Positions 48,562 to 61,519 of a stretch of 64,000 nt of DNA are shown here, piece after piece (position 1 is the stretch's first letter; each line of letters begins with the position of its first letter). The stretch lies in the sequence record PZ386976.1; one strand, 5' to 3'. Under the pieces are notes generated by a model. It searched no databases. It had not been told where the DNA came from and worked only from the letters and a program-made list of their open reading frames with translations. A program made the translations under genes and the position numbers. Source of the stretch: a phage.

Positions 48562-49758
48562 ATGAACAAAGTACAGATTATTAAAAAGAATGGCTCACTC
48601 GAAGAACCTGATATCAAAAAAGTTTTAGCAGCAGTCACAAAGTCAGCTAATAGGGTTGGGTATAAAGAACTCCCACCAGATGTTACTCAAGCTCTTGAGT
48701 CAGCATTTATGAGGATTCTGGTAAAGTCCACTAAGCAGAATAATTTGCTAATTTCTGTAAACGATATTCACAGTATTGTTGAGGGTGCTTTGGCAGAAGT
48801 CAATCACGAAATTTATGAGTCTTACTCAACATACAGAAATTACCGTAAAGAAGTTGCTCAAAATTGGGATGAACTCTACCAGAAGACCAAAGATACACTC
48901 TTCTTAGGTGACAGAGAGAATGCTAACTTTGACAGCAGTTTAATTTCTACAAAAGGCTCAATTATTCGTGGTTACCTGACTAAAGAAATCTTTAAACAGT
49001 ACCATTTAACACCAGAGGAACTTGAAGCCATTGAAAAAGGGTTTATCTATATCCATGATTTAAGAGACCTAATTTTTGGTGGTATCAACTGTTGCCTGTT
49101 TGACATTGGTAAAGTCCTGAAAGGTGGCTTTGAAATGTCTGGCATCGAATATTGTGAACCAAAGTCTGTGCTGTCGGCCTTACAGGTTATTGGTGACGTA
49201 GTTCTTTCAGCAACTGCACAGCAATTTGGTGGCTTTACTTTAGCAGAGATTGATAAGGTACTCGTACCGTATGCTAAGAAGTCTCTACGCTATCATGCTG
49301 AGAAAGCAGCATCTTATGGTATTCCTAAAGAACATTACCACAATTATATCATGGAGCAGCTACAGATTGAACTGACTCAAGGTTTCCAGTCACTTGAAAT
49401 GAAACTCAATACTGTGCCTTGTAGCCGTGGGGATTTTGCATTTACAACTTTGACATTCGGGTTACTTGATTCAGATATGTCTAATGAAGATAACCGACTG
49501 CAATACATGATTGCAAGTACTCTCCTAGATGTTCGTATGAATGGACAAGGTAAGAGCAAGAAGCCTGTTGTATTCCCTAAACTGGTTTATATTTATGACC
49601 AGAAGAGACACGATGAGAATATCTGTCAAGGACACCTGTACAGTAAAGCCATTGAGTGTTGCTCTAAAGCAATGTATCCAGATTTCTTAAGTGTATCTGG
49701 TCATGGTGCTGTAGCAGAGGCTTTTGAGCGTTCTGGTAAGGTTATTTCACCGATGGGT
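48562..49758 (+). CDS. nrdD: anaerobic ribonucleotide reductase NrdD, exon 1
   Basis: N-terminal ATP-cone-like; ends ...GKVISPMG, matching E. coli NrdD ...VISPMG|CRSFL recalled from memory; track ORF runs to stop at 49759-49761 inside intron. Confidence 0.8.
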
Positions 49759-50500
49759 TAACAAGCTCTATAGCTCATCTAAAACGTGCCTAAACAGGGA
49801 AACTCTACAGATGTAGACAATCCTGTGCTAAATGATGTACGATGTAAGAAACTATACAACATAGGAGTCTTACATGCCAAACTATCACGTCACTGAAGAT
49901 GGAAAAGTCTTTAGGGAAAATGGTGTAGAGCTTACGCAGTGGAAATCCAACACTGGGTATATGAAAGTGAGGTTTTACGGTAAGAAGAATCGTGACATGT
50001 ATGTCCACAGGTTAGTTGCTGAGAAATATGTACCTAACCCGAATAATCTTCCAATTGTAAAACATAAGGACGATAACAAACTAAATAACCACGCATCTAA
50101 CTTAGAATGGGGTACTCATTCTGAGAATGCTAAAGAAGGTTATGAGAACGGTTGCTACAAGTTCCACAAGCGTTCATATGCCGTGAAAGCCACACACAAA
50201 GTGACAAGGGAAGTTATTGTTACTAAGTCAATACGAGAGTTATCCAATATACTTGGACACAATCGCAAGACCATCTCTTCAATATTGAAGGGTGTAAAAG
50301 AGCATAATAACTTCGAATATGAGTTTGAATACATCTAAATGCCGAACGACTAACCGTGATGAATGTAGCGGTGTAGGGTCAAGCGACTCGAAATGGTACG
50401 CTACTTAGAAATAAGTAGAAGATATAGTCTGGACTTACTGGCGACAGTAAGCAGCTTGAATAAAGCGGGGTAAGCTTAGCGAACTTACCTGAACAACAAG
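49759..50500 (+). mobile_element. group I intron in nrdD carrying HNH endonuclease gene
   Basis: exon 1 last nt T (49758); intron last nt G (50500); R-like GTCAAGCGACTCGAAA (~50366-50386) and S-like AAGATATAGTC (50419-50429); joined exons read SPMG-CRAFLSPYLNENGEEFYVGR. Confidence 0.75.
49874..50338 (+). CDS. HNH homing endonuclease (intron-encoded)
   Basis: HNH motif region HKDDNKLNNHASNLEWGTHSEN; lies wholly inside nrdD intron upstream of R/S core. Confidence 0.7.
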   Translation: MPNYHVTEDGKVFRENGVELTQWKSNTGYMKVRFYGKKNRDMYVHRLVAEKYVPNPNNLPIVKHKDDNKLNNHASNLEWGTHSENAKEGYENGCYKFHKRSYAVKATHKVTREVIVTKSIRELSNILGHNRKTISSILKGVKEHNNFEYEFEYI

Positions 50501-51448
50501 TGTAGAGCATTTTTATCACCATATCTTAACGAGAATGGGGAAGAGTTCTATGTAGGTCGTGCTAACATTGGTGCTGTGTCTTTGAACTTACCAATGATTT
50601 ACCAGTATTCTAAAGAGAATGAATTAGATTTCTGGAAAGAGCTTGATAAGTACCTAGAAATGATTCGCAGCTTCCACAAGAAACGTTACGAAATGATTGC
50701 TAATATGCCAGCAAGTTCTAACCCTCTTGCGTTCACACAAGGTGGTCTGTACAAAGGGAATAAGAAACCTACTGACAGGGTTGGCTGGGATATCGTGAAG
50801 TCCTTCACAGCTTCTTTTGGGGTTACTGCGCTTGATGAGCTATCTGTTCTTGCTGAAGGTAAACGACTTCATGAAGTTGGAAGCTGTAGTTTTGCATACG
50901 ATGTTCTGGAATACATCAACATGAAAACTGAAGAGTTTAAAAATGAAGATGGCTTCTTATATGCCGTCTATGGTACTCCAGCAGAATCACTTTGTGGAAC
51001 TCAGCTAAAACAGTTCAGAGATATGTTTGGCGTTATCAAAGGTGTTTCTGATAAGGAATACTTTACAAACAGCTTCCATATGAATGTTGCAGCAGACATT
51101 ACACCATTTGAGAAGCAGGACTTAGAAGAACCCTTCTTCCATATCTGTAGAGGCGGTAGAATCCAGTATGTAAGAGTGGCTAATCCAGAAAACTTATCAG
51201 CACTTAAGAGTTGTATTACGAGAGGTATGTTGAAAGGTTTCTATCAGGGACTGAACTTTGACTTAGCAATCTGTGAACATTGCGGTAACAGACCAAAGGC
51301 TGATGTTGAAGAATGTGAGGTTTGTCATTCACATGATATCTCTGTGATTAACAGGGTGTGCGGGTATCTCGGGTGGACTAAGATTAAAGGCGAATCCCGA
51401 ATGAATGATGCAAAAATCGCTGAGATTCGTGACAGAGTTTCTATGTAA
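50501..51448 (+). CDS. nrdD: anaerobic ribonucleotide reductase NrdD, exon 2
   Basis: in-frame continuation CRAFLSPYLNENGEEFYVGRANIGAVSLNLP; C-terminal zinc site and glycyl-radical motif RVCGYLG. Confidence 0.8.
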   Translation, partial: CRAFLSPYLNENGEEFYVGRANIGAVSLNLPMIYQYSKENELDFWKELDKYLEMIRSFHKKRYEMIANMPASSNPLAFTQGGLYKGNKKPTDRVGWDIVKSFTASFGVTALDELSVLAEGKRLHEVGSCSFAYDVLEYINMKTEEFKNEDGFLYAVYGTPAESLCGTQLKQFRDMFGVIKGVSDKEYFTNSFHMNVAADITPFEKQDLEEPFFHICRGGRIQYVRVANPENLSALKSCITRGMLKGFYQGLNFDLAICEHCGNRPKADVEECEVCHSHDISVINRVCGYLGWTKIKGESRMNDAKIAEIRDRVSM

Positions 51449-53508: not shown

Positions 53509-53829
53509 ATGAGCAAAGTTTATAACACTCGCAAATTACAGATTTTCGTACTGTGCCAGTTTATGGCTAAAGAATACAACTTCTACTATTGTGGCACAGG
53601 TTTTATTAGCGACGATGATGGTTCATACCTACCATTTAAAGAAGCTGTGAAGCTCTTTAATGAAGAGAAAAACTCTAAGAAAGATATCGAAAAGGTCAAG
53701 CTAACCTATAGCAAGAAAGATAAGAAGATTATCTGCCTAGATAACTTTGTAAAAGTTACTGGAGAAGCAAAAGAGTTTATGGATGAGAGTGAGATTTCAT
53801 TCACAAGCATCTTGAAAGTAGCTCAGTAA
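53509..53829 (+). CDS. hypothetical protein
   Basis: 106 aa. Confidence 0.3.
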   Translation: MSKVYNTRKLQIFVLCQFMAKEYNFYYCGTGFISDDDGSYLPFKEAVKLFNEEKNSKKDIEKVKLTYSKKDKKIICLDNFVKVTGEAKEFMDESEISFTSILKVAQ

Positions 53830-53842
53830 ACAGATACTATAA

Positions 53843-53866
53843 GGGAACCTTTACAGTTCCCTTTTT
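53843..53866 (+). terminator. rho-independent terminator
   Basis: gggaac-ctttaca-gttccc then TTTTT. Confidence 0.55.
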
Positions 53867-53880
53867 ATTTTGGAGATAAA

Positions 53881-54396
53881 ATGTATCTGTCAAACCTGAA
53901 ACGTTCGGCTGCAATGTCAGTTCTAAGACTCAGCTTTGAGGAACGTCAAGAGTTCATTGACTCCCACCAATACGACCCTTCTAACTCGAATCACATGGTT
54001 CTTTGGAATCGTGATAACTTCCGTGAAAGAGCACTTGTCCGTTATTACCCACACTACACAATAGATAACCTGTATGAATGGTGTGTTGTGAAGAACACTA
54101 TTGCAACACTGAACAATCTTTGCAGGTATACAGGTAAGCAAGCATTTACATTAGGTCACCACAAACCTGTTACAAAGGGTGGTGAGCATCACTGTGCAAA
54201 CTGGTTTATCCAGACTAAACTTGATAACCAGAAGCAAGGAGATAGCCTTCTAAGCATCCCTAAGATGACCTATGAAGAGCAAGAGAAATATATCAAAAAT
54301 AATATGCCAGATGTGCTTGACAACAACTATACAGATTTGGCAATATCTCTCCTGTTGAAGTTCGAGACAGTTTATAGGGCAACTTACAATGGCTAA
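53881..54396 (+). CDS. hypothetical protein
   Basis: 171 aa. Confidence 0.3.
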   Translation: MYLSNLKRSAAMSVLRLSFEERQEFIDSHQYDPSNSNHMVLWNRDNFRERALVRYYPHYTIDNLYEWCVVKNTIATLNNLCRYTGKQAFTLGHHKPVTKGGEHHCANWFIQTKLDNQKQGDSLLSIPKMTYEEQEKYIKNNMPDVLDNNYTDLAISLLLKFETVYRATYNG

Positions 54397-54667
54397 AGAG
54401 AAGTGGGAGCTTTTACCATTAATCAGTGAAGGCGGTAATGGTTGTGAAATGTACATGATACGTGGTCATGTTCCAGAACCAATTGCACTTGAGATGGTAA
54501 ACAACTTTACAGATGGCTCTTACAAAGACTTAGAGGAGCCAACTATAAAGCAGCAATGGGTAAAGCCTGTACCAGATAGCACAGGTAACTGTAGTGTACT
54601 TTATCACGTTGTAGACCCTGCAAAATGCAAATCTGCAATGGCAGTAACAAACGTAACTTTTGATTGA
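54389..54667 (+). CDS. hypothetical protein
   Basis: 92 aa. Confidence 0.3.
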   Translation: MAKEKWELLPLISEGGNGCEMYMIRGHVPEPIALEMVNNFTDGSYKDLEEPTIKQQWVKPVPDSTGNCSVLYHVVDPAKCKSAMAVTNVTFD

Positions 54668-55560
54668 GAGGGAAAACTATGAAAACTGTTATTGAAGCCG
54701 TCGTCACCGCACAAGAGAAATTCTTCCACACAGAAAAATTTAATATCATTCAATTCCCATCTGGAGAAATTGGTGGAAACTTCTCTGAAGATTTTGTTAA
54801 GTTTACTGAGCGTAATGCTGGTAAGATTGATAATGTTATACTTACTGTACAGGGATATGACAAAGACACACTGTTTGCATTAGCTTTGGCTAAAGATGCC
54901 GTTGACAGTCTTGTTCCCCAGAAATCAGCGATGAAAACCGTTGTTTTCGGGTTCTTACCAAATGCTCGATATGACCGCCACATGTTCAAAGGTGATGCAG
55001 CAGCACTGAAAGTCTTTGCCAACCTCGTTAATGCAATGGGTTTTGATGCAGTATGTGCTCTTGACCCTCACAGTAATGTTGCAGAAAACTTATTTAAGTG
55101 CTTTCAGAGCATGAAGCAAAAAGATGTTGCAGCACACTTTGCAAGTGACCCACGCATTGATTTCTTGGTAGCCCCAGATGCAGGTGCAGCTAAGAAGACT
55201 GAAAATACCGCTAAAGAAGTGGATAAACCGTATATCACAATGTCTAAGGTACGTAACCTTAAGACTGGTGAAATTACTGGTATGCGAATCCTTGATGATG
55301 TTGATTTGACAGATAAAACTGTCATGATTCTGGATGATATTTGTGATGGAGGCCGAACCTTCGTAGAGGCAGCGAAACACCTACGCGAAGCAGGTGCAAA
55401 ACGTGTGGAACTATATGTAACACATGGAATTTTCTCTAAAGGTGTTGAAAACTTGCTTGACAACGGAATCGACCATATCTACACTACAAACACTTTAGGT
55501 GAAGCTAAAGACCGTGGATTAACACATTATGGTCAAGTTACTGTAGCAAACATTGATTGA
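54664..55560 (+). CDS. ribose-phosphate pyrophosphokinase (Prs) family protein; candidate Adps of NAD+ reconstitution pathway
   Basis: Prs-family motifs incl. PRPP-binding loop MILDDICDGGRT and LYVTHGIFS; 298 aa; adjacent to NAMPT-like gene. Confidence 0.75.
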   Translation: MRGKTMKTVIEAVVTAQEKFFHTEKFNIIQFPSGEIGGNFSEDFVKFTERNAGKIDNVILTVQGYDKDTLFALALAKDAVDSLVPQKSAMKTVVFGFLPNARYDRHMFKGDAAALKVFANLVNAMGFDAVCALDPHSNVAENLFKCFQSMKQKDVAAHFASDPRIDFLVAPDAGAAKKTENTAKEVDKPYITMSKVRNLKTGEITGMRILDDVDLTDKTVMILDDICDGGRTFVEAAKHLREAGAKRVELYVTHGIFSKGVENLLDNGIDHIYTTNTLGEAKDRGLTHYGQVTVANID

Positions 55561-55569
55561 AACTTTATA

Positions 55570-55591
55570 GGGGGCTTCAAAGCCCCATTTT
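55570..55591 (+). terminator. putative rho-independent terminator/attenuator between Prs-like and NAMPT-like genes
   Basis: ggggct-tcaa-agcccc then ATTTT. Confidence 0.5.
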
Positions 55592-55606
55592 GAGAGAGAT
55601 TAAAAG

Positions 55607-57388
55607 ATGACTAAATCACTTTATGCAGTACCAGCAGGTTTAAATGCGGACGCTTACAAGTCTGGCCATATATACCAGTACCCCAGTGCAACAGAGTACT
55701 TGATGTTCAACCTGACACCACGTAGCGACAAATGGTTTAACAGCCCTTTGGCAATTGACGGTGTAGTGGCTTTTGGTATTCAACGTTTTGTTAAAGATTA
55801 CTTGATAGACCACTGGAATGCCACTTTCTTTGAACGTGATAAAAAAGAAGCAATTGACGAAATCTTAGAAGTCATGAATGGTGTTCTGGGTAAAGATGCT
55901 ATCGGTCGGGAGCATTGGGAAGCACTTCACGACTTAGGTTATCTACCAGTTGGAGTATACGCTGTAGAAGAAGGCACAGTTGTCCCTATGCGTGTTCCGA
56001 TGATTGTTTTCCAGAACACTGTTTCAGGTTTCCATTGGGTAGCAGGTTATCTAGAAGATGCTTTCTCTGCTGAGATTTGGAAGGCTTGTACCATTGCAAC
56101 TATTGCATTGCACTACAAACGTATCTGTAAGAAGTGGGCTGACCTTACTTGTGATAACGACTTACATTTACCTTATCAGTGCCATGACTTTGCTATGCGT
56201 GGTATGTCCGGCTTTACTGATGACGCATTTAACGCTGTAGGCCACTTAACCAGCTTTAAAGGGACTGATAGCTTCCCTGCTGTATATACAGCTAAACGCA
56301 TCTACGGACAGTCTTACCCAGTCTCTGATATTGGTGGTTCTGTACCAGCCACTGAACACTCTGTAATGTGTGCAAACATTGCTTGGGAAGGTGGTAATGA
56401 ATTGATTGAAGAAGAAAGACGCTTTAAAGGTGAATTACAAACCTTCCGTCGCTTCTTAACAGAAACTTATCCAACTGGTATTGCAAGTGTTGTTTCAGAT
56501 ACTTATAACTTCTGGAGAACTGTGTCAGAAATCTTACCAGCACTCCGTAAAGAAATTATGGAACGTGATGGTAAACTGGTGATTCGTCCTGACTCTGGAG
56601 ACCCTGTACATATTGTCACAGGCTATAAAGCAATCCACTTAGAGTGTGCTAAGAAGGCTTATTACGAGCACCTGAGCAAGCTGGAAGCTAGTGACACAAT
56701 GCTGAATGCTGTTCTGAACATGAAGCTTGAAAACATCAACTATGGTATTGCTGGATGGCTACTGTCAGAAGGCTACGAAATGGTTGTTGACAGAGAAGAC
56801 TTTGAAGTTGCGGATACAGTATTGCTAAAGAACGCTTATATGGTTGGTTCTGCAAACGTTGTAACACGCCCTGTAGCAGAGATTGATGGAGCTATTAAGA
56901 CACTGTACAACATCTTTGGAGGGACTATCAACTCTAAAGGGTTTAAGGTACTGGATGAGCACATCGGCCTTATCTATGGTGACTCTATCACACTGGAACG
57001 TGCAAACGAAATCCTGAAGCGCCTGTATGAAATGGGTTTTGCAAGCTCTAACGTAGTGTTTGGCGTAGGCTCTTACACTTACCAGTACATGACTCGTGAC
57101 ACCTTTGCATTTGCTGTCAAAGCAACTCTTGCAAGCATTGGTGGTAAAGAGGTTATGCTTGCAAAAGACCCTAAAACAGATAGTGGTGTTAAGAAGTCTG
57201 CTTTTGGTGGTGTAGCACCTATGTGGGATGGTGATAAGTTGAAAGCTGTAGATGGCTATGGATTCCAGAGCTTTGCAGATGCACTTGAACATCCAGCTTG
57301 TGCTTTACGTTTAGTCTTTAGTGACTCTGAGCAGTACGGTTACACATCTCTTGGTGATATTCGAAATAATATTGACAAGCAGCTTTAA
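55607..57388 (+). CDS. nicotinamide phosphoribosyltransferase (NAMPT) family protein; candidate Namat
   Basis: N-terminal DAYKSGHIYQYP resembles NAMPT DSYKVTHYKQYP; 593 aa; adjacent to Prs-like gene. Confidence 0.75.
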   Translation: MTKSLYAVPAGLNADAYKSGHIYQYPSATEYLMFNLTPRSDKWFNSPLAIDGVVAFGIQRFVKDYLIDHWNATFFERDKKEAIDEILEVMNGVLGKDAIGREHWEALHDLGYLPVGVYAVEEGTVVPMRVPMIVFQNTVSGFHWVAGYLEDAFSAEIWKACTIATIALHYKRICKKWADLTCDNDLHLPYQCHDFAMRGMSGFTDDAFNAVGHLTSFKGTDSFPAVYTAKRIYGQSYPVSDIGGSVPATEHSVMCANIAWEGGNELIEEERRFKGELQTFRRFLTETYPTGIASVVSDTYNFWRTVSEILPALRKEIMERDGKLVIRPDSGDPVHIVTGYKAIHLECAKKAYYEHLSKLEASDTMLNAVLNMKLENINYGIAGWLLSEGYEMVVDREDFEVADTVLLKNAYMVGSANVVTRPVAEIDGAIKTLYNIFGGTINSKGFKVLDEHIGLIYGDSITLERANEILKRLYEMGFASSNVVFGVGSYTYQYMTRDTFAFAVKATLASIGGKEVMLAKDPKTDSGVKKSAFGGVAPMWDGDKLKAVDGYGFQSFADALEHPACALRLVFSDSEQYGYTSLGDIRNNIDKQL

Positions 57389-57402
57389 AAGTATATGATA
57401 AG

Positions 57403-57425
57403 AGGCTCCTACGGGAGCCTTTTTA
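57403..57425 (+). terminator. rho-independent terminator
   Basis: aggctcc-tacg-ggagcct then TTTT. Confidence 0.6.
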
Positions 57426-57441
57426 ATTTCTGGAGAAAACT

Positions 57442-57777
57442 ATGAAAATCAAAGAGATGAACATCAACGTTGTCTTAGAAGAACGTTGGGAGAACATTAA
57501 GAAGCCTGAAGATGGTAAAAAGTTCCTTAACAAAATTTTAGTAGCAGCTAAAGAAGAACTGACTGGGAAGATTGCAGCAGCAATCACAATAAAGGTTTGT
57601 GTAAAAGGTCTTCCACAACATCACCAGTTTGCTCTTGACGAGTTTAAAGAAAGCTTCTACAATCCAAATAAACAGATGCTTGAAAGTAACTTTGCAGTAT
57701 CTACAAGTATCGTTCATGACAGAAGCTTTATCCTTTACAAAAACATGAGAGGTGAGTCATGCAAGCATATTGGATAG
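57442..57777 (+). CDS. hypothetical protein
   Basis: 111 aa. Confidence 0.3.
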   Translation: MKIKEMNINVVLEERWENIKKPEDGKKFLNKILVAAKEELTGKIAAAITIKVCVKGLPQHHQFALDEFKESFYNPNKQMLESNFAVSTSIVHDRSFILYKNMRGESCKHIG

Positions 57778-57935
57778 AAATTTTACTGTCACTTGGTAGT
57801 GTAGCAGTATTTGTTTACCTTCTTTGCAAGTACTATGCAGAGCACAAGAAGTGTGATTACTGCAACGGGGAAGGGTATACAAGAGCAGGCTGTTGCCCTA
57901 TTTGTGGCGGTTCTGGTAAAATGTTTAATAAGTAA
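57759..57935 (+). CDS. small membrane-anchored zinc-finger peptide (ORF below track cutoff)
   Basis: ATG at 57759; hydrophobic N-terminus then CDYCNGEG...CCPICGGSG (CxxCxGxG x2); read by eye, about 58 aa. Confidence 0.3.
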   Translation: MQAYWIEILLSLGSVAVFVYLLCKYYAEHKKCDYCNGEGYTRAGCCPICGGSGKMFNK

Positions 57936-57963: not shown

Positions 57964-60330
57964 ATGCGCATGGTAAACGACCACGCAGAAGTGATTAAGA
58001 GTTCAACTTCTTTGGAGACATCTCAAGCACAGATTACAATGACACCTGAAATGTTCAGCCTTTTAAGTTCAGGTGTATACACATTTAAAGAAAGGGCAGT
58101 GATTCGTGAACTGTCATGTAACGCAGTAGATGCTCAAAAAGAAGCTGGAAAAGAGAACATCCCATTCCATGTGCATTTACCTACTCGATTTGAGCCTTAC
58201 TTTGAAGTCCGTGACTTTGGAACTGGTTTAACCCATGACAAAGTAATGAGTTTGTATCTGAACTATGGGGCTTCTACGAAGAATGACTCCAATGATTACA
58301 TTGGTGCAATGGGTATCGGCTCAAAATCCCCATTTGCAATTGCTCAGTCATTCACAGTATCTAGCTATGTTGATGGTGTTGTTAATAAGTACTCTGTTTA
58401 CCTTGAGAATGGTATCCCTCAAGTAACTAAGCTTACTACCAACCCAACAAATGAACCCAATGGTTTAGCTGTACGTGTAGCAGTTGCTGACCATCGTATT
58501 TCAAAGTTCTTTGAAGAGGCTGGTCACGTATACTCATACTTTGCTGTAAAACCAGAAAGTAACGTTGTATATGATGATGTATTAGCAGATATGAATGTCA
58601 TTGCCCGTGAAGAGGGTGTTTATGATGCTATGATTCATAAGCAAAGCTGGCGTTCTAGTGGCAACAGGACAGAGTTTAATGTGGTGATGGGTAATATTGC
58701 CTACCCAGTGAACATGGAAGCATTACTTGGTGATGATTTCTTCAAAGTCTTGCCAGAGTTTTTCCGTAGGAGCGTAGACCTTGTAAACATCTACATGCCT
58801 ATTGGTTCAGTGGCTATTGCAGCTTCTCGTGAAGCATTGCAGATGAATGACACGACAAAAAATGTTATCATTGAGGCTACTAAAAAGATAACTGAAGCCA
58901 TTACAAAGGATGTTATCAAGAAAGTTAACAGCCAACCTACACTCATGGATGCTGCACAGGCTTATGCTGAGTTACGTTTGAACTCACGAGAGATGTTTAA
59001 TGCTGTGTGTCCAAAGCTAGAGTGGGGAGGCGTTAAGCTTGATTCTCTGGAAGAAGAATTACTAAACATTCGTCGTGGGATTATCTACGCAGAAGACGGC
59101 TCAGTCATTTATGAACGTGACGGTAAAGGTAATATCAAGGTTGATAGGAACGGGAACAATATCCCTAAAGTGGATTATCTTTATAATCCAGTTGCTTATG
59201 TCAAGTTCAACTCTTTAGAGAGTAAGATTCGTGCAACAGCACTTTCCTACACTCAAGAGGCAAGTATGTTCAATATCTTTGGTGCAATGCGTAAAAGCCA
59301 AATTGAACAGTTTTTGTTCGTGATTAATGACCGTCGTAATAAAAATGGCACTGAGAAGACTGTAGGCCGCAATCAGATTCTGCGTGGTGCATGTCGAGAC
59401 TACGCTAACGAGTCAAGCCTGTTCCACAGATACAATGGTATTGTGTTTGTATTCTCGACTGAAAAAGAGTTAGATGATTTAATCAATCTGCATAAACTTG
59501 ATAAAAGTTTGTTAAAGATTGTGAAGATGTCTGATAAGGAACACCATTATCAGCGTAAAGAAGCTGTGAGGGGTGTTGTAAAACTCTGGAAAGCTGTTCC
59601 ATCAGAAACTAAAGCTTCATACACAGAGGTGTCAGAAGACCTAGATACAATTGAAGAACCCCAGCTTTATATCAAGGCAGTAGGCGACACAGTTGATGGT
59701 GAATGTTTTTGCTCATCCCCAGAAGATGTAGCTAAAACAATTGCTAATGTTATAGGAAAAACAGTCTATGTTTTCCGAAAAGCAAATTGGAAAAAGATAC
59801 CAGAAGACTGGATTGAAGTAGATGAGAAGCTATTGAATGACAGCTTAACTGATGTTCACTGGATTAATCATAACAGGTATATGACACGTATCTATATGAA
59901 TGGTGTCCTTGACCTTACAAGTAGTTGGATTATTGCCAGAAACTTTACGTTTAATAACAAGAAGATTTCTCGCGGGTATTGCTATTCACGAGATACAAAC
60001 AAAACCATCTTCTTAGAAGGTAATGAGAATGCTGTTGAGGCAATGTTTGGTAAGATTCAGTATGTGGCTGCACCGTTTGCATACACTTACACTATCAGTG
60101 TTCTTCAGGATTTGAAGTCATGCCTTGACAATGATACAAAACTGTACAAAAAGATTAAGAAAGCGGGTGACCGCATGGTTATCAAACTGACAAACTACCT
60201 TTCAAAAAGAAAACAAGAAAACTTCTTGCTTTCCCATTTAGATTGGAATAAAGTGTCACCCATCGAAGTGAGTAAGTTCTTAGGCTTTGATGTGAAGTGT
60301 GTTCCAGAAGGGACTACAATTTACGATTAA
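57964..60330 (+). CDS. rIIA: rIIA-like protein (GHKL ATPase domain)
   Basis: N-terminal GHKL-type boxes (ELSCNAVDA, VRDFGTGL, GAMGIGSKS); 788 aa; followed by rIIB-sized gene. Confidence 0.5.
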   Translation: MRMVNDHAEVIKSSTSLETSQAQITMTPEMFSLLSSGVYTFKERAVIRELSCNAVDAQKEAGKENIPFHVHLPTRFEPYFEVRDFGTGLTHDKVMSLYLNYGASTKNDSNDYIGAMGIGSKSPFAIAQSFTVSSYVDGVVNKYSVYLENGIPQVTKLTTNPTNEPNGLAVRVAVADHRISKFFEEAGHVYSYFAVKPESNVVYDDVLADMNVIAREEGVYDAMIHKQSWRSSGNRTEFNVVMGNIAYPVNMEALLGDDFFKVLPEFFRRSVDLVNIYMPIGSVAIAASREALQMNDTTKNVIIEATKKITEAITKDVIKKVNSQPTLMDAAQAYAELRLNSREMFNAVCPKLEWGGVKLDSLEEELLNIRRGIIYAEDGSVIYERDGKGNIKVDRNGNNIPKVDYLYNPVAYVKFNSLESKIRATALSYTQEASMFNIFGAMRKSQIEQFLFVINDRRNKNGTEKTVGRNQILRGACRDYANESSLFHRYNGIVFVFSTEKELDDLINLHKLDKSLLKIVKMSDKEHHYQRKEAVRGVVKLWKAVPSETKASYTEVSEDLDTIEEPQLYIKAVGDTVDGECFCSSPEDVAKTIANVIGKTVYVFRKANWKKIPEDWIEVDEKLLNDSLTDVHWINHNRYMTRIYMNGVLDLTSSWIIARNFTFNNKKISRGYCYSRDTNKTIFLEGNENAVEAMFGKIQYVAAPFAYTYTISVLQDLKSCLDNDTKLYKKIKKAGDRMVIKLTNYLSKRKQENFLLSHLDWNKVSPIEVSKFLGFDVKCVPEGTTIYD

Positions 60331-60409: not shown

Positions 60410-61519
60410 ATGACTATTAAAACTAAAGCACAGATTGACGCAGAAATTTACAAACTGGTTAAAGAGGGTAAGCTGACTAAAACAGCTATTGCACAGAAAT
60501 TTAACACCTCAACCCGTTCAGTCGGTCGTGCTGTAGAGCGTCATGAAGCAACCTTAAAAGGTAAGAAAAAGGTAGCTTCTAAACCAGCTACGAAGACTTT
60601 GAAGCAAGTTGCTAAATCAGTTAAAAAGAAAGCTGGAAAACCAGTTGAAAATGTTGTTAAAGAGACTGTACAAAAGGCTCCGGTAAATAAACTACACGAA
60701 GCTATGCAGAATGGTAACCAGATTGAGTATATGATTACTGGCGATTCTGTTATCATGACTTTCGGTGCAGATTCTGAAATCGTTGAATCTACCCATCCGA
60801 ACTACAAAGAAATCGTAATGGCTGTTGTATCCGGTGAGTATAAGAAAGCTTTCGAACTGATGAACATTCGTAAATCTATCGAAAACTTCACTCAGGGTGC
60901 TATCACCATCAAAGGTGACAAGTTATTCTACGGTGCTGTTGAGATGCGTTCTACTCTGGTTGACCGTATTCTTCACATGATGAAGACTGGAGATAAAGGT
61001 TTTGAACGCCTTGTGATGTTCTTCGAAAAACTGATGGAAAACCCATCTAAAGACTCTGTAGAACAACTTTGGGGCTTTGTATCTCACCTTGATGTTGAAA
61101 TTGATGAAGAAGGCTACATCATTGGTTGGAAGAAAGTCTCTACTCGTGAAGGCAAGCTGGTTGACTCCCACACCTACAAAGTACCTAATGATTTGGGTAA
61201 CATTGTAGAAATGCCACGTTGGATGGTTGATAACAACCGTAACGTGACTTGCTCTCAAGGTCTTCATGTTGGTGCTTGGGACTATGTTCGTTGCTTCTCA
61301 GGTGATACAATCCTGAAGGTTCGTGTCCATCCACGAGATGTTGTATCTGTTCCAACTGATTACAACGATATGAAGATGCGTTCGTCTCGTTATGAAGTTG
61401 CAGCAATCGTTGATAATCAACGTAAAGTGCTGAAAGCATGGGATGGCAAGACTGAAGCTTTGCATGTCATCGTTGGCACTGCTGGAGAACTTATCTCCCA
61501 ACGTAAACGTGAAATCTAA
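60410..61519 (+). CDS. rIIB: rIIB-like protein (putative)
   Basis: 369 aa directly downstream of rIIA-like gene; adjacency-based. Confidence 0.4.
   Translation: MTIKTKAQIDAEIYKLVKEGKLTKTAIAQKFNTSTRSVGRAVERHEATLKGKKKVASKPATKTLKQVAKSVKKKAGKPVENVVKETVQKAPVNKLHEAMQNGNQIEYMITGDSVIMTFGADSEIVESTHPNYKEIVMAVVSGEYKKAFELMNIRKSIENFTQGAITIKGDKLFYGAVEMRSTLVDRILHMMKTGDKGFERLVMFFEKLMENPSKDSVEQLWGFVSHLDVEIDEEGYIIGWKKVSTREGKLVDSHTYKVPNDLGNIVEMPRWMVDNNRNVTCSQGLHVGAWDYVRCFSGDTILKVRVHPRDVVSVPTDYNDMKMRSSRYEVAAIVDNQRKVLKAWDGKTEALHVIVGTAGELISQRKREI

Follow-up and report, generated by a model that had tools for sequence, protein, structure and literature searches.

A Prs-family and NAMPT-family gene pair in a Felixounavirus genome is very probably a copy of the NAD+ reconstitution module NARP1

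The 64,000-nucleotide stretch of phage DNA analysed here (record PZ386976.1, called the window below, always at its full length) carries two adjacent + strand open reading frames (ORFs), which an ORF listing of the 52–62 kb interval places at 54664..55560 (298 amino acids when read from a TTG) and 55607..57388 (593 amino acids). The first encodes a Prs-family and the second a NAMPT-family protein, and we propose, with little doubt, that this locus is NARP1 as carried by Felixounavirus, a two-enzyme NAD+ reconstitution module directed against NAD+-depleting defences. The system is already known and published, and the genus is that of the founding example. We refer to the two genes as adps, for the ADP-ribose (ADPR) pyrophosphate synthetase (54679..55560, + strand, 293 amino acids), and namat, for the nicotinamide ADPR-transferase (55607..57388, + strand, 593 amino acids). 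The adps start is taken as the ATG at 54679, which has GAGAGGG before it and is also the start annotated in phage Bas63; the TTG at 54664, which was rejected as a start, shares bases with the stop codon of the preceding ORF. The original prediction, made from the letters of the sequence, had the Prs-like gene directly upstream of the NAMPT-like gene on one strand with a gap of about 45 bp, and this is what we find, the spacer measuring 46 bp. The two peptide motifs that it quoted are also present, MILDDICDGGRT at residues 216–227 of Adps and DAYKSGHIYQYP at residues 15–26 of Namat.

Megablast of the locus against the phage collection identifies the window as Felixounavirus (a Felix O1-like myovirus). 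The locus matched 258 phage records, 229 of them over at least 80% of its length; the matching records are overwhelmingly Felixounavirus of Escherichia, Salmonella and Shigella, and the highest identity is 96.4% (Salmonella phages FSL SP-010/012). A 24.5-kb query from the window gave the same picture, with Bas63 at approximately 95% nucleotide identity. Because both searches top out at about 96%, the window is, to judge from these alignments, a distinct Felixounavirus isolate, and by the same record counts the Adps/Namat module is near-universal in the genus.

The strongest evidence for the function of the pair comes from Bas63, a BASEL phage also known as Escherichia phage JohannRWettstein, in whose genes 79–80 NARP1 (Adps plus Namat) was discovered (Osterman et al., bioRxiv 10.1101/2024.02.11.579819). 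The window proteins have the same lengths as their Bas63 counterparts and are identical to them at 288 of 293 positions (98%; bas63_0079) and 578 of 593 positions (97%; bas63_0080), with none of the 5 substitutions in Adps or the 15 in Namat falling on a mapped catalytic or ligand-contact position. This bears out the original prediction of a NARP1-like Adps/Namat module. Deletion of genes 79–80 from Bas63 lowers plating on SIR2-HerA cells approximately 20-fold, infection by the wild-type phage leaves NAD+ less depleted, and metabolomics in vivo detects ADPR pyrophosphate (ADPR-PP; m/z 720.010) only when wild-type Bas63 and the defence system are combined (bioRxiv 10.1101/2024.02.11.579819). 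In the supplementary tables of that study the proteins of Bas63 and Felix O1 are entered as Adps and 'Adps-associated' Namat (bioRxiv 10.1101/2024.02.11.579819). As the Bas63 Adps 'did not purify well', the purified-enzyme chemistry was carried out with homologues from SpβL1, whose Adps makes ADPR-PP from ADPR and ATP and gives no product from ribose-5-phosphate and ATP (Fig. 2D of bioRxiv 10.1101/2024.02.11.579819).

By analogy, we infer that the window proteins act like those of Bas63 and SpβL1. In this scheme a defence NADase (SIR2-HerA/Nezha, type I Thoeris, DSR1/2, SEFIR or others) would convert NAD+ to ADPR and nicotinamide, and Adps would then place a pyrophosphate from ATP on the 1'' position of ADPR (ADPR + ATP -> ADPR-PP + AMP). 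Nicotinamide would displace that pyrophosphate on Namat (ADPR-PP + nicotinamide -> NAD+ + PPi), so that NAD+ would be regenerated directly, with need for neither a nicotinamide mononucleotide (NMN) intermediate nor an NMN adenylyltransferase (Nmnat).

A different reading follows the database names, as Pfam, NCBIfam, PHROG and GenBank call these proteins 'ribose-phosphate pyrophosphokinase' and 'nicotinamide phosphoribosyltransferase'. The pair would then be an ordinary phosphoribosyl pyrophosphate (PRPP) synthetase and a Nampt that together make NMN, from which host NadR or PncC/NadD would complete NAD+. We consider canonical salvage of this kind very improbable. Bas63 retains its ability to overcome SIR2-HerA in ΔpncC ΔnadR Escherichia coli, which excludes the NMN route for that phage, and the SpβL1 homologue of gp79 is inert with ribose-5-phosphate and ATP yet makes ADPR-PP from ADPR and ATP. 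For the Bas63 orthologue canonical salvage is thus largely refuted, and the window proteins themselves bear on it in several ways, as follows.

In Pfam, Adps matches Pribosyltran and Pribosyl_synth, and in NCBIfam it passes the Prs subfamily model TIGR01251 (139.6 bits; cutoff 113), but it lies far below every equivalog cutoff for housekeeping Prs, the best score being 114.2 against 296 and another being 102 against 297, which argues against an ordinary PRPP synthetase. The ribose-phosphate or PRPP-type binding loop recognised by alignment and motif (55324..55359, + strand) has the core DGGRT where human PRPS1 has DTCGT, and so departs from the DT(C/A)GT loop of housekeeping Prs. The 'DGG' is also present in the Adps of Vibrio phage Pontus (DDISDGGAS), and the altered loop may accommodate the ADP moiety. 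The residues of the catalytic flexible loop, K190-V-R192 (55246..55254, + strand), were placed by HMMER alignment to 2H08 and 4TWB, in which K190 and R192 fall on K194 and R196 of human PRPS1. K190 would then be equivalent to K197 of Bacillus subtilis Prs and to K162 of SpβL1 Adps, and the SpβL1 lysine equivalent to the catalytic Prs lysine is the residue that was mutated in the published work (bioRxiv 10.1101/2024.02.11.579819). The window Adps shares 47% identity with an Adps-like protein encoded on the Klebsiella chromosome and 38% (128 bits) with the Adps of the Pontus Adps-Macro-Namat operon, and scores at most 72 bits against any solved Prs. As our literature search found neither a published Adps structure nor a residue-level signature that separates Adps from Prs, membership of the Adps clade rests on clade identity (to the Bas63 Adps and the listed members) and on linkage.

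For Namat the discrimination can be made at the level of residues. The protein matches the NAPRTase/NAMPT_N families and PRK09198 (465.7 bits). Namat is set apart from Nampt by a two-part selectivity clamp, namely a variable loop (SCL) and a helix (SCH), the latter having the consensus GS-X-Φ1-X-Φ2-X-Φ3-TRD, in which X is aromatic (PMC12774641). Residues 488–498 of the window Namat (57068..57100, + strand) read GSYTYQYMTRD and fit this consensus, as do the corresponding residues in all of the 120 nearest database homologues with respect to the aromatic signature, whereas true Nampts lack it (GGALLQKVDRD in Nampt of the bacterium Xanthomonas, Xcc, and GGGLLQMVNRD in NadV of Aeromonas phage 31). 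The SCL, mapped onto SpβL1 Namat, comprises residues 39–48, RSDKWFNSPL (55721..55750, + strand). It is of the Bas63 type: the 'third' position is Lys42, and the residue predicted to stack on adenine is Trp43. Where the SCL has a Lys or Tyr the next residue is the one that stacks, Bas63 being the published example (PMC12774641). The clamp signature together with the SCL stacking residue is what is expected of NARP1, and an intact signature of the kind that confers preference for ADPR-PP is difficult to reconcile with canonical salvage.

When the SpβL1 NAD+-contact residues are mapped by HMMER alignment, 16 of the 20 are identical in the window Namat. The conserved contact and catalytic positions include R327 (R306 in SpβL1), D329, D221, F195, Y17 and the catalytic H251. 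The four contacts that differ are K42 for R40, A196 for S190, S460 for A362 and Y490 for F392. The catalytic residues of both enzymes are therefore intact, as a working NARP1 would demand. Among solved structures the best relatives by sequence are those of SpβL1 Namat (9W5W/9W5X, 427 bits), with Xcc Nampt at 179 bits and human and other mammalian NAMPT at approximately 140 bits. An AlphaFold2 (AF2) model built with 44 homologues (pLDDT 92.7, pTM 0.91) gave the same order in Foldseek: 9W5X/9W5W came first with a TM-score of 0.95 on the target, followed by the 'HdNadV' structures 9KE8/9KEO, which we take to be Haemophilus ducreyi NadV, and then by mammalian NAMPT. Both comparisons by which the original prediction could be judged thus come out in its favour, the Prs-like protein lying under all housekeeping-Prs cutoffs and the NAMPT-like protein carrying the signature and standing nearer to Namat than to Nampt in sequence and in structure.

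The window Namat also has a lineage-specific insertion of 84 amino acids (residues 344–427; 56636..56887, + strand) relative to the crystallised SpβL1 Namat. It lies in the loop after the RPDSGDP motif, whose length ranges from 17 to 99 amino acids across homologues, and AF2 models it confidently as a compact α/β subdomain, within the whole protein as well as by itself. No relatives of the insertion were detected by sequence or by fold, and the main text of the structural paper does not use the word 'insertion' (PMC12774641). A separate observation is that phrog_12872, a single profile of 547 positions, matches Adps at positions 33–224 and Namat at positions 235–534; as one profile spans both enzymes, this implies that fused Adps-Namat proteins probably exist in some phages.

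A canonical pathway would also call for an Nmnat, and 94% of phages with a true Nampt encode one. To the original prediction that none is recognisable in the window we can add two lines of support. Pfam, run in four batches on the 90 ORFs called in the window, returned structural genes, Nrd enzymes, thymidylate synthase, DHFR, dNMP kinase, ligase, primase/helicase and homing endonucleases; in none of the ORFs did it detect a domain of the cytidylyltransferase-like, NUDIX, Macro or RyR type. The NatV-type Nmnat from Aeromonas phage 31, searched in six frames against the window and Bas63 DNA (tblastn and phmmer), gave a best E value of 0.56, while the positive control, NadV of the same phage, matched Namat at 5e-33. 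For the genome beyond the window (approximately 25 kb) we used Bas63 (sequence L002) as the representative; its annotation there includes no Nmnat, and the Pfam families listed for its 24 coding sequences of at least 100 amino acids include neither an Nmnat nor a NUDIX domain. The proposed genome-wide absence of an Nmnat, which is what NARP1 would predict, therefore stands for the window ORFs, and for the remainder it is judged from a relative of approximately 95% nucleotide identity.

The same searches bear on the composition of the module. The window has no Macro (Adpp) or RyR (RyDEP) gene, RyR-type domains being absent from its ORFs at E <= 0.001 and from the immediate neighbours even at E <= 1. 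As the window is negative for these Pfam domains, the known NARP1 add-ons Adpp and RyDEP are absent from the locus, which is thus not an example of the RyDEP-extended NARP1, in which a gene for a RyR/R12-domain cyclic ADPR (cADPR) glycosidase lies in the locus.

Within the window analysis, then, the assignment to NARP1 is based on orthology, signature residues, fold, gene arrangement and the absence of an Nmnat, and nothing in the sequence itself runs counter to it. Several points nevertheless weigh on the other side. The purified-enzyme chemistry comes from SpβL1 homologues that are only some 38–40% identical, and its transfer to the Felixounavirus proteins is by analogy. Namat makes NMN from PRPP in vitro, a side activity at about half the rate of human Nampt (PMC12774641). 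This speaks for canonical salvage, and some flux through that route is possible. The 84-residue insertion is absent from the crystallised enzyme, and for the rest of this phage's genome the absence of an Nmnat is deduced from Bas63. Finally, the functional module could exceed two genes, because Bas63 carries an unlinked Macro gene, bas63_0095, beyond the position that corresponds to the window edge.

This gene (L002:3379-4164) encodes a 261-amino-acid 'putative phosphatase' with a Macro domain (PF01661, E 1e-7). It begins 871 bp beyond the window end (64000), approximately 7.8 kb downstream of namat, and is the sole Macro gene found in the reference genome. Its product is 27% identical to the Macro protein of the Pontus operon over the whole length of the latter (E 3e-13), and from this similarity it is possible that bas63_0095 is an unlinked, Adpp-like partner of NARP1; the published survey counted Macro genes only within two genes of NARP1 (bioRxiv 10.64898/2026.01.28.702374). 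The family is very broad, with 2,850 phage records that include T4-like phages, which are not known to carry NARP1. An extended form of NARP1, in which bas63_0095 acts in trans by converting ADPR-1''-phosphate to ADPR (against the aRES defence) and the Namat insertion serves as a regulatory or partner-docking module instead of being a neutral expansion of the loop, seems to us doubtful.

As regards the arrangement of the operon, the two genes are adjacent on one strand, as in NARP1 operons, and are followed by a single strong terminator. This intrinsic terminator (57400..57423, + strand) lies directly 3' of the namat stop and has a 10-bp stem, a UACG loop and a U-run; it folds at −16.6 kcal/mol (z −3.3), is identical in Bas63 and marks the 3' end of the module. 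At the other end the nearest terminator-like hairpin with a T-run is at 53841..53863 (+ strand; 8-pair stem, −12.3 kcal/mol, z −2.6), and on its pattern and energy it is likely to be the 5' boundary of the transcription unit that holds the module. The original prediction placed terminators on both sides; the downstream one does abut Namat, but the upstream one is approximately 820 bp before Adps, with two ORFs in between. These are a 171-amino-acid orthologue of bas63_0077 (53881..54396, + strand; phrog_3500) and a 92-amino-acid orthologue of bas63_0078 with no known domain (54389..54667, + strand; phrog_4726), the stop of the latter being 11 nt before the Adps ATG. Since the hairpin at 53841–53863 is the nearest one upstream, the transcription unit may also take in both of these small ORFs, which are outside the gene 79–80 deletion that defined the Bas63 phenotype. 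The larger of them, two genes upstream of Adps and inside the same terminator-bounded unit, has weak similarity to HNH endonucleases (phrog_2214, E 7e-6; HHKPVTKGGEHHCANW); it may perhaps be co-transcribed with adps and namat, and is not part of core NARP1.

A G+C-rich hairpin (GGGGGC-UUCA-AAGCCCC region) followed by AUUUU is recognised by sequence and folding within the 46-bp Adps-Namat spacer (55571..55586, + strand; to 55591 with the AUUUU). Its folding signal is modest (centroid −11.4 kcal/mol, z −1.96), and Bas63 has it too, apart from a single change in the loop and a single deletion at the stem edge. We regard it as a candidate attenuator or transcript-stabilising element, which may set the ratio of Adps to Namat.

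Downstream of the terminator are two small ORFs (57442–57777 and 57759–57935 in the ORF listing), then rIIA (57964–60330; phrog_612, E 5e-189) and rIIB (60410–61519; phrog_609, E 3e-88). The rII genes that the original prediction put immediately downstream are therefore real by PHROGs, although two small ORFs separate them from Namat. Upstream lies a block of nucleotide-metabolism genes encoding NrdA/B, NrdD/G, glutaredoxin, thymidylate synthase, DHFR and dNMP kinase, and the four small ORFs that flank the module gave no informative matches in Pfam or PHROGs. As the neighbours upstream of the unit are this nucleotide-metabolism block, the suggestion of an anti-defence neighbourhood has no support beyond rII proximity and is speculation.

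These neighbours invite another interpretation, namely that the pair serves general nucleotide supply and raises the pools of PRPP and pyridine nucleotides for phage DNA synthesis, independently of any defence. The presence of the module in nearly the whole genus, with 229 of 258 records holding at least 80% of the locus, would fit such a role. However, a phage encoding NARP1 produces no excess NAD+ in cells that lack a defence system, ADPR is scarce in such undefended cells, ADPR-PP appears only when a defence system is present, and deletion of the operon has its phenotype specifically on the SIR2-HerA host. We consider this explanation even more improbable than canonical salvage.

Some further observations concern the boundaries of the unit and the surrounding genome. 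At both boundaries a sigma-70-like promoter match abuts the terminator hairpin (57372–57399, TTGACA-16-TATGAT, 11 of 12 positions; 53812–53840, 9 of 12), such that a transcript from either would begin inside the terminator stem. From the sequence this suggests overlapping terminator/promoter junctions between gene cassettes. Bas63 has an extra 114-amino-acid gene, bas63_0081 (L001:7042-7386), situated exactly between the Namat terminator/ribosome binding site and the next gene, which the window is without, and in the records ekra and LinBro the match to the locus also overlaps, at this or another point, an annotated HNH endonuclease; the junction at 57424–57445 may be an insertion hotspot. At approximately 48562–51448 two separate ORFs match the anaerobic ribonucleotide reductase NrdD family, with a 154-amino-acid ORF between them, and in the Bas63 annotation nrdD is joined from two pieces, which would fit an intron that harbours a homing endonuclease. 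The same third of the window also has HNH_3 domains, in two ORFs, and SegE GIY-YIG domains. The record GU169904.1, 'Staphylococcus phage SA1', holds the Felixounavirus locus at 95% identity and is also in the published Adps table, which suggests that it is a mislabelled or chimeric entry.

The module can be recognised from raw sequence, as the Namat signature, scores under the equivalog cutoffs for Prs and the lack of an Nmnat combine into a quick and reliable annotation rule. Such a rule is useful, as nearly all of the 258 Felixounavirus-type records keep the Prs and Nampt labels, which hide the counter-defence function. Felix O1-like phages are used in typing, biocontrol and therapy of Salmonella and E. 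coli. Carriage of NARP1 predicts that these phages resist NAD+-depleting defences of the SIR2, TIR and SEFIR types, although the literature suggests that their sensitivity to aRES may persist unless the unlinked Macro protein helps. The insertion, the Macro gene and the Klebsiella pair described below are modest leads rather than findings.

Among known systems the closest is NARP1 of Bas63 itself, which is from the same genus and shares the gene order and spacing, the spacer hairpin, the terminator, the Namat signature and the K42-W43 clamp loop with the window. It differs by the 5 and 15 substitutions and by bas63_0081, present in Bas63 but not in the window just past the Namat terminator, and no sequenced record exceeds about 96% identity to the window genome. 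NARP1 of SpβL1 (9W5W/9W5X; PMC12774641) has the same two-gene architecture, the same SCH signature class, 16 of 20 NAD+ contacts in common and a TM-score of 0.95, notwithstanding an identity of approximately 37–38% between the two Namats in the Foldseek alignment. Where its clamp loop has Arg40 the window has Lys42-Trp43 in a loop longer by 4 residues, and the window Namat has, besides the extra 84-residue subdomain (residues 344–427), a 15-residue insertion around residues 259–273.

NARP1-AP, described from Vibrio phage Gary, adds the Macro-domain ADPR-1''-phosphatase Adpp to Adps and Namat (bioRxiv 10.64898/2026.01.28.702374). The window Adps and Namat are 38% and 37% identical, respectively, to their counterparts in the Adps-Macro-Namat operon of Pontus, but there is no Macro gene in or beside the window operon, that is, within two genes of it. 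NARP2, found in Vibrio phage KVP40 and T4-like Aeromonas phages, consists of Nampt/NadV and Nmnat/NatV, uses PRPP and needs the Nmnat. It resembles the window locus in that an enzyme of the NAMPT family rebuilds NAD+ and counters NAD+-depleting defences; in contrast, NadV of Aeromonas phage 31 is 27% identical to the window Namat, has GGGLLQMVNRD in place of the aromatic signature and lies near a cytidylyltransferase/NUDIX NatV. NARP1 and NARP2 have not been found together, and the window, with a Namat signature and no Nmnat found, does not belong to NARP2.

The same gene pair in the same order is also found on the chromosome of Klebsiella michiganensis (L005:3211-6491), where the Adps-like protein is the one noted above as 47% identical and the signature reads GSFTYQYNTRD. 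There the Namat-like protein has 496 amino acids and no insertion, and the pair is divergent from an NrtR-type regulator gene with NUDIX and WHD_NrtR domains. The Klebsiella module lies between prkB and yheS/kefB, and 23 further contigs carry the identical 496-amino-acid protein, mostly with the same neighbours. It is apparently a chromosomal module of the NARP1 type coupled to an ADPR-sensing repressor, and from this setting its role may be the housekeeping recycling of ADPR and not counter-defence. Bacterial copies and regulation dependent on ADPR are mentioned in the NARP1 papers in general terms only, and another chromosomal pair of Prs-like and Namat-like genes is pfNARP1 of Paenibacillus foliorum (PMC12774641).

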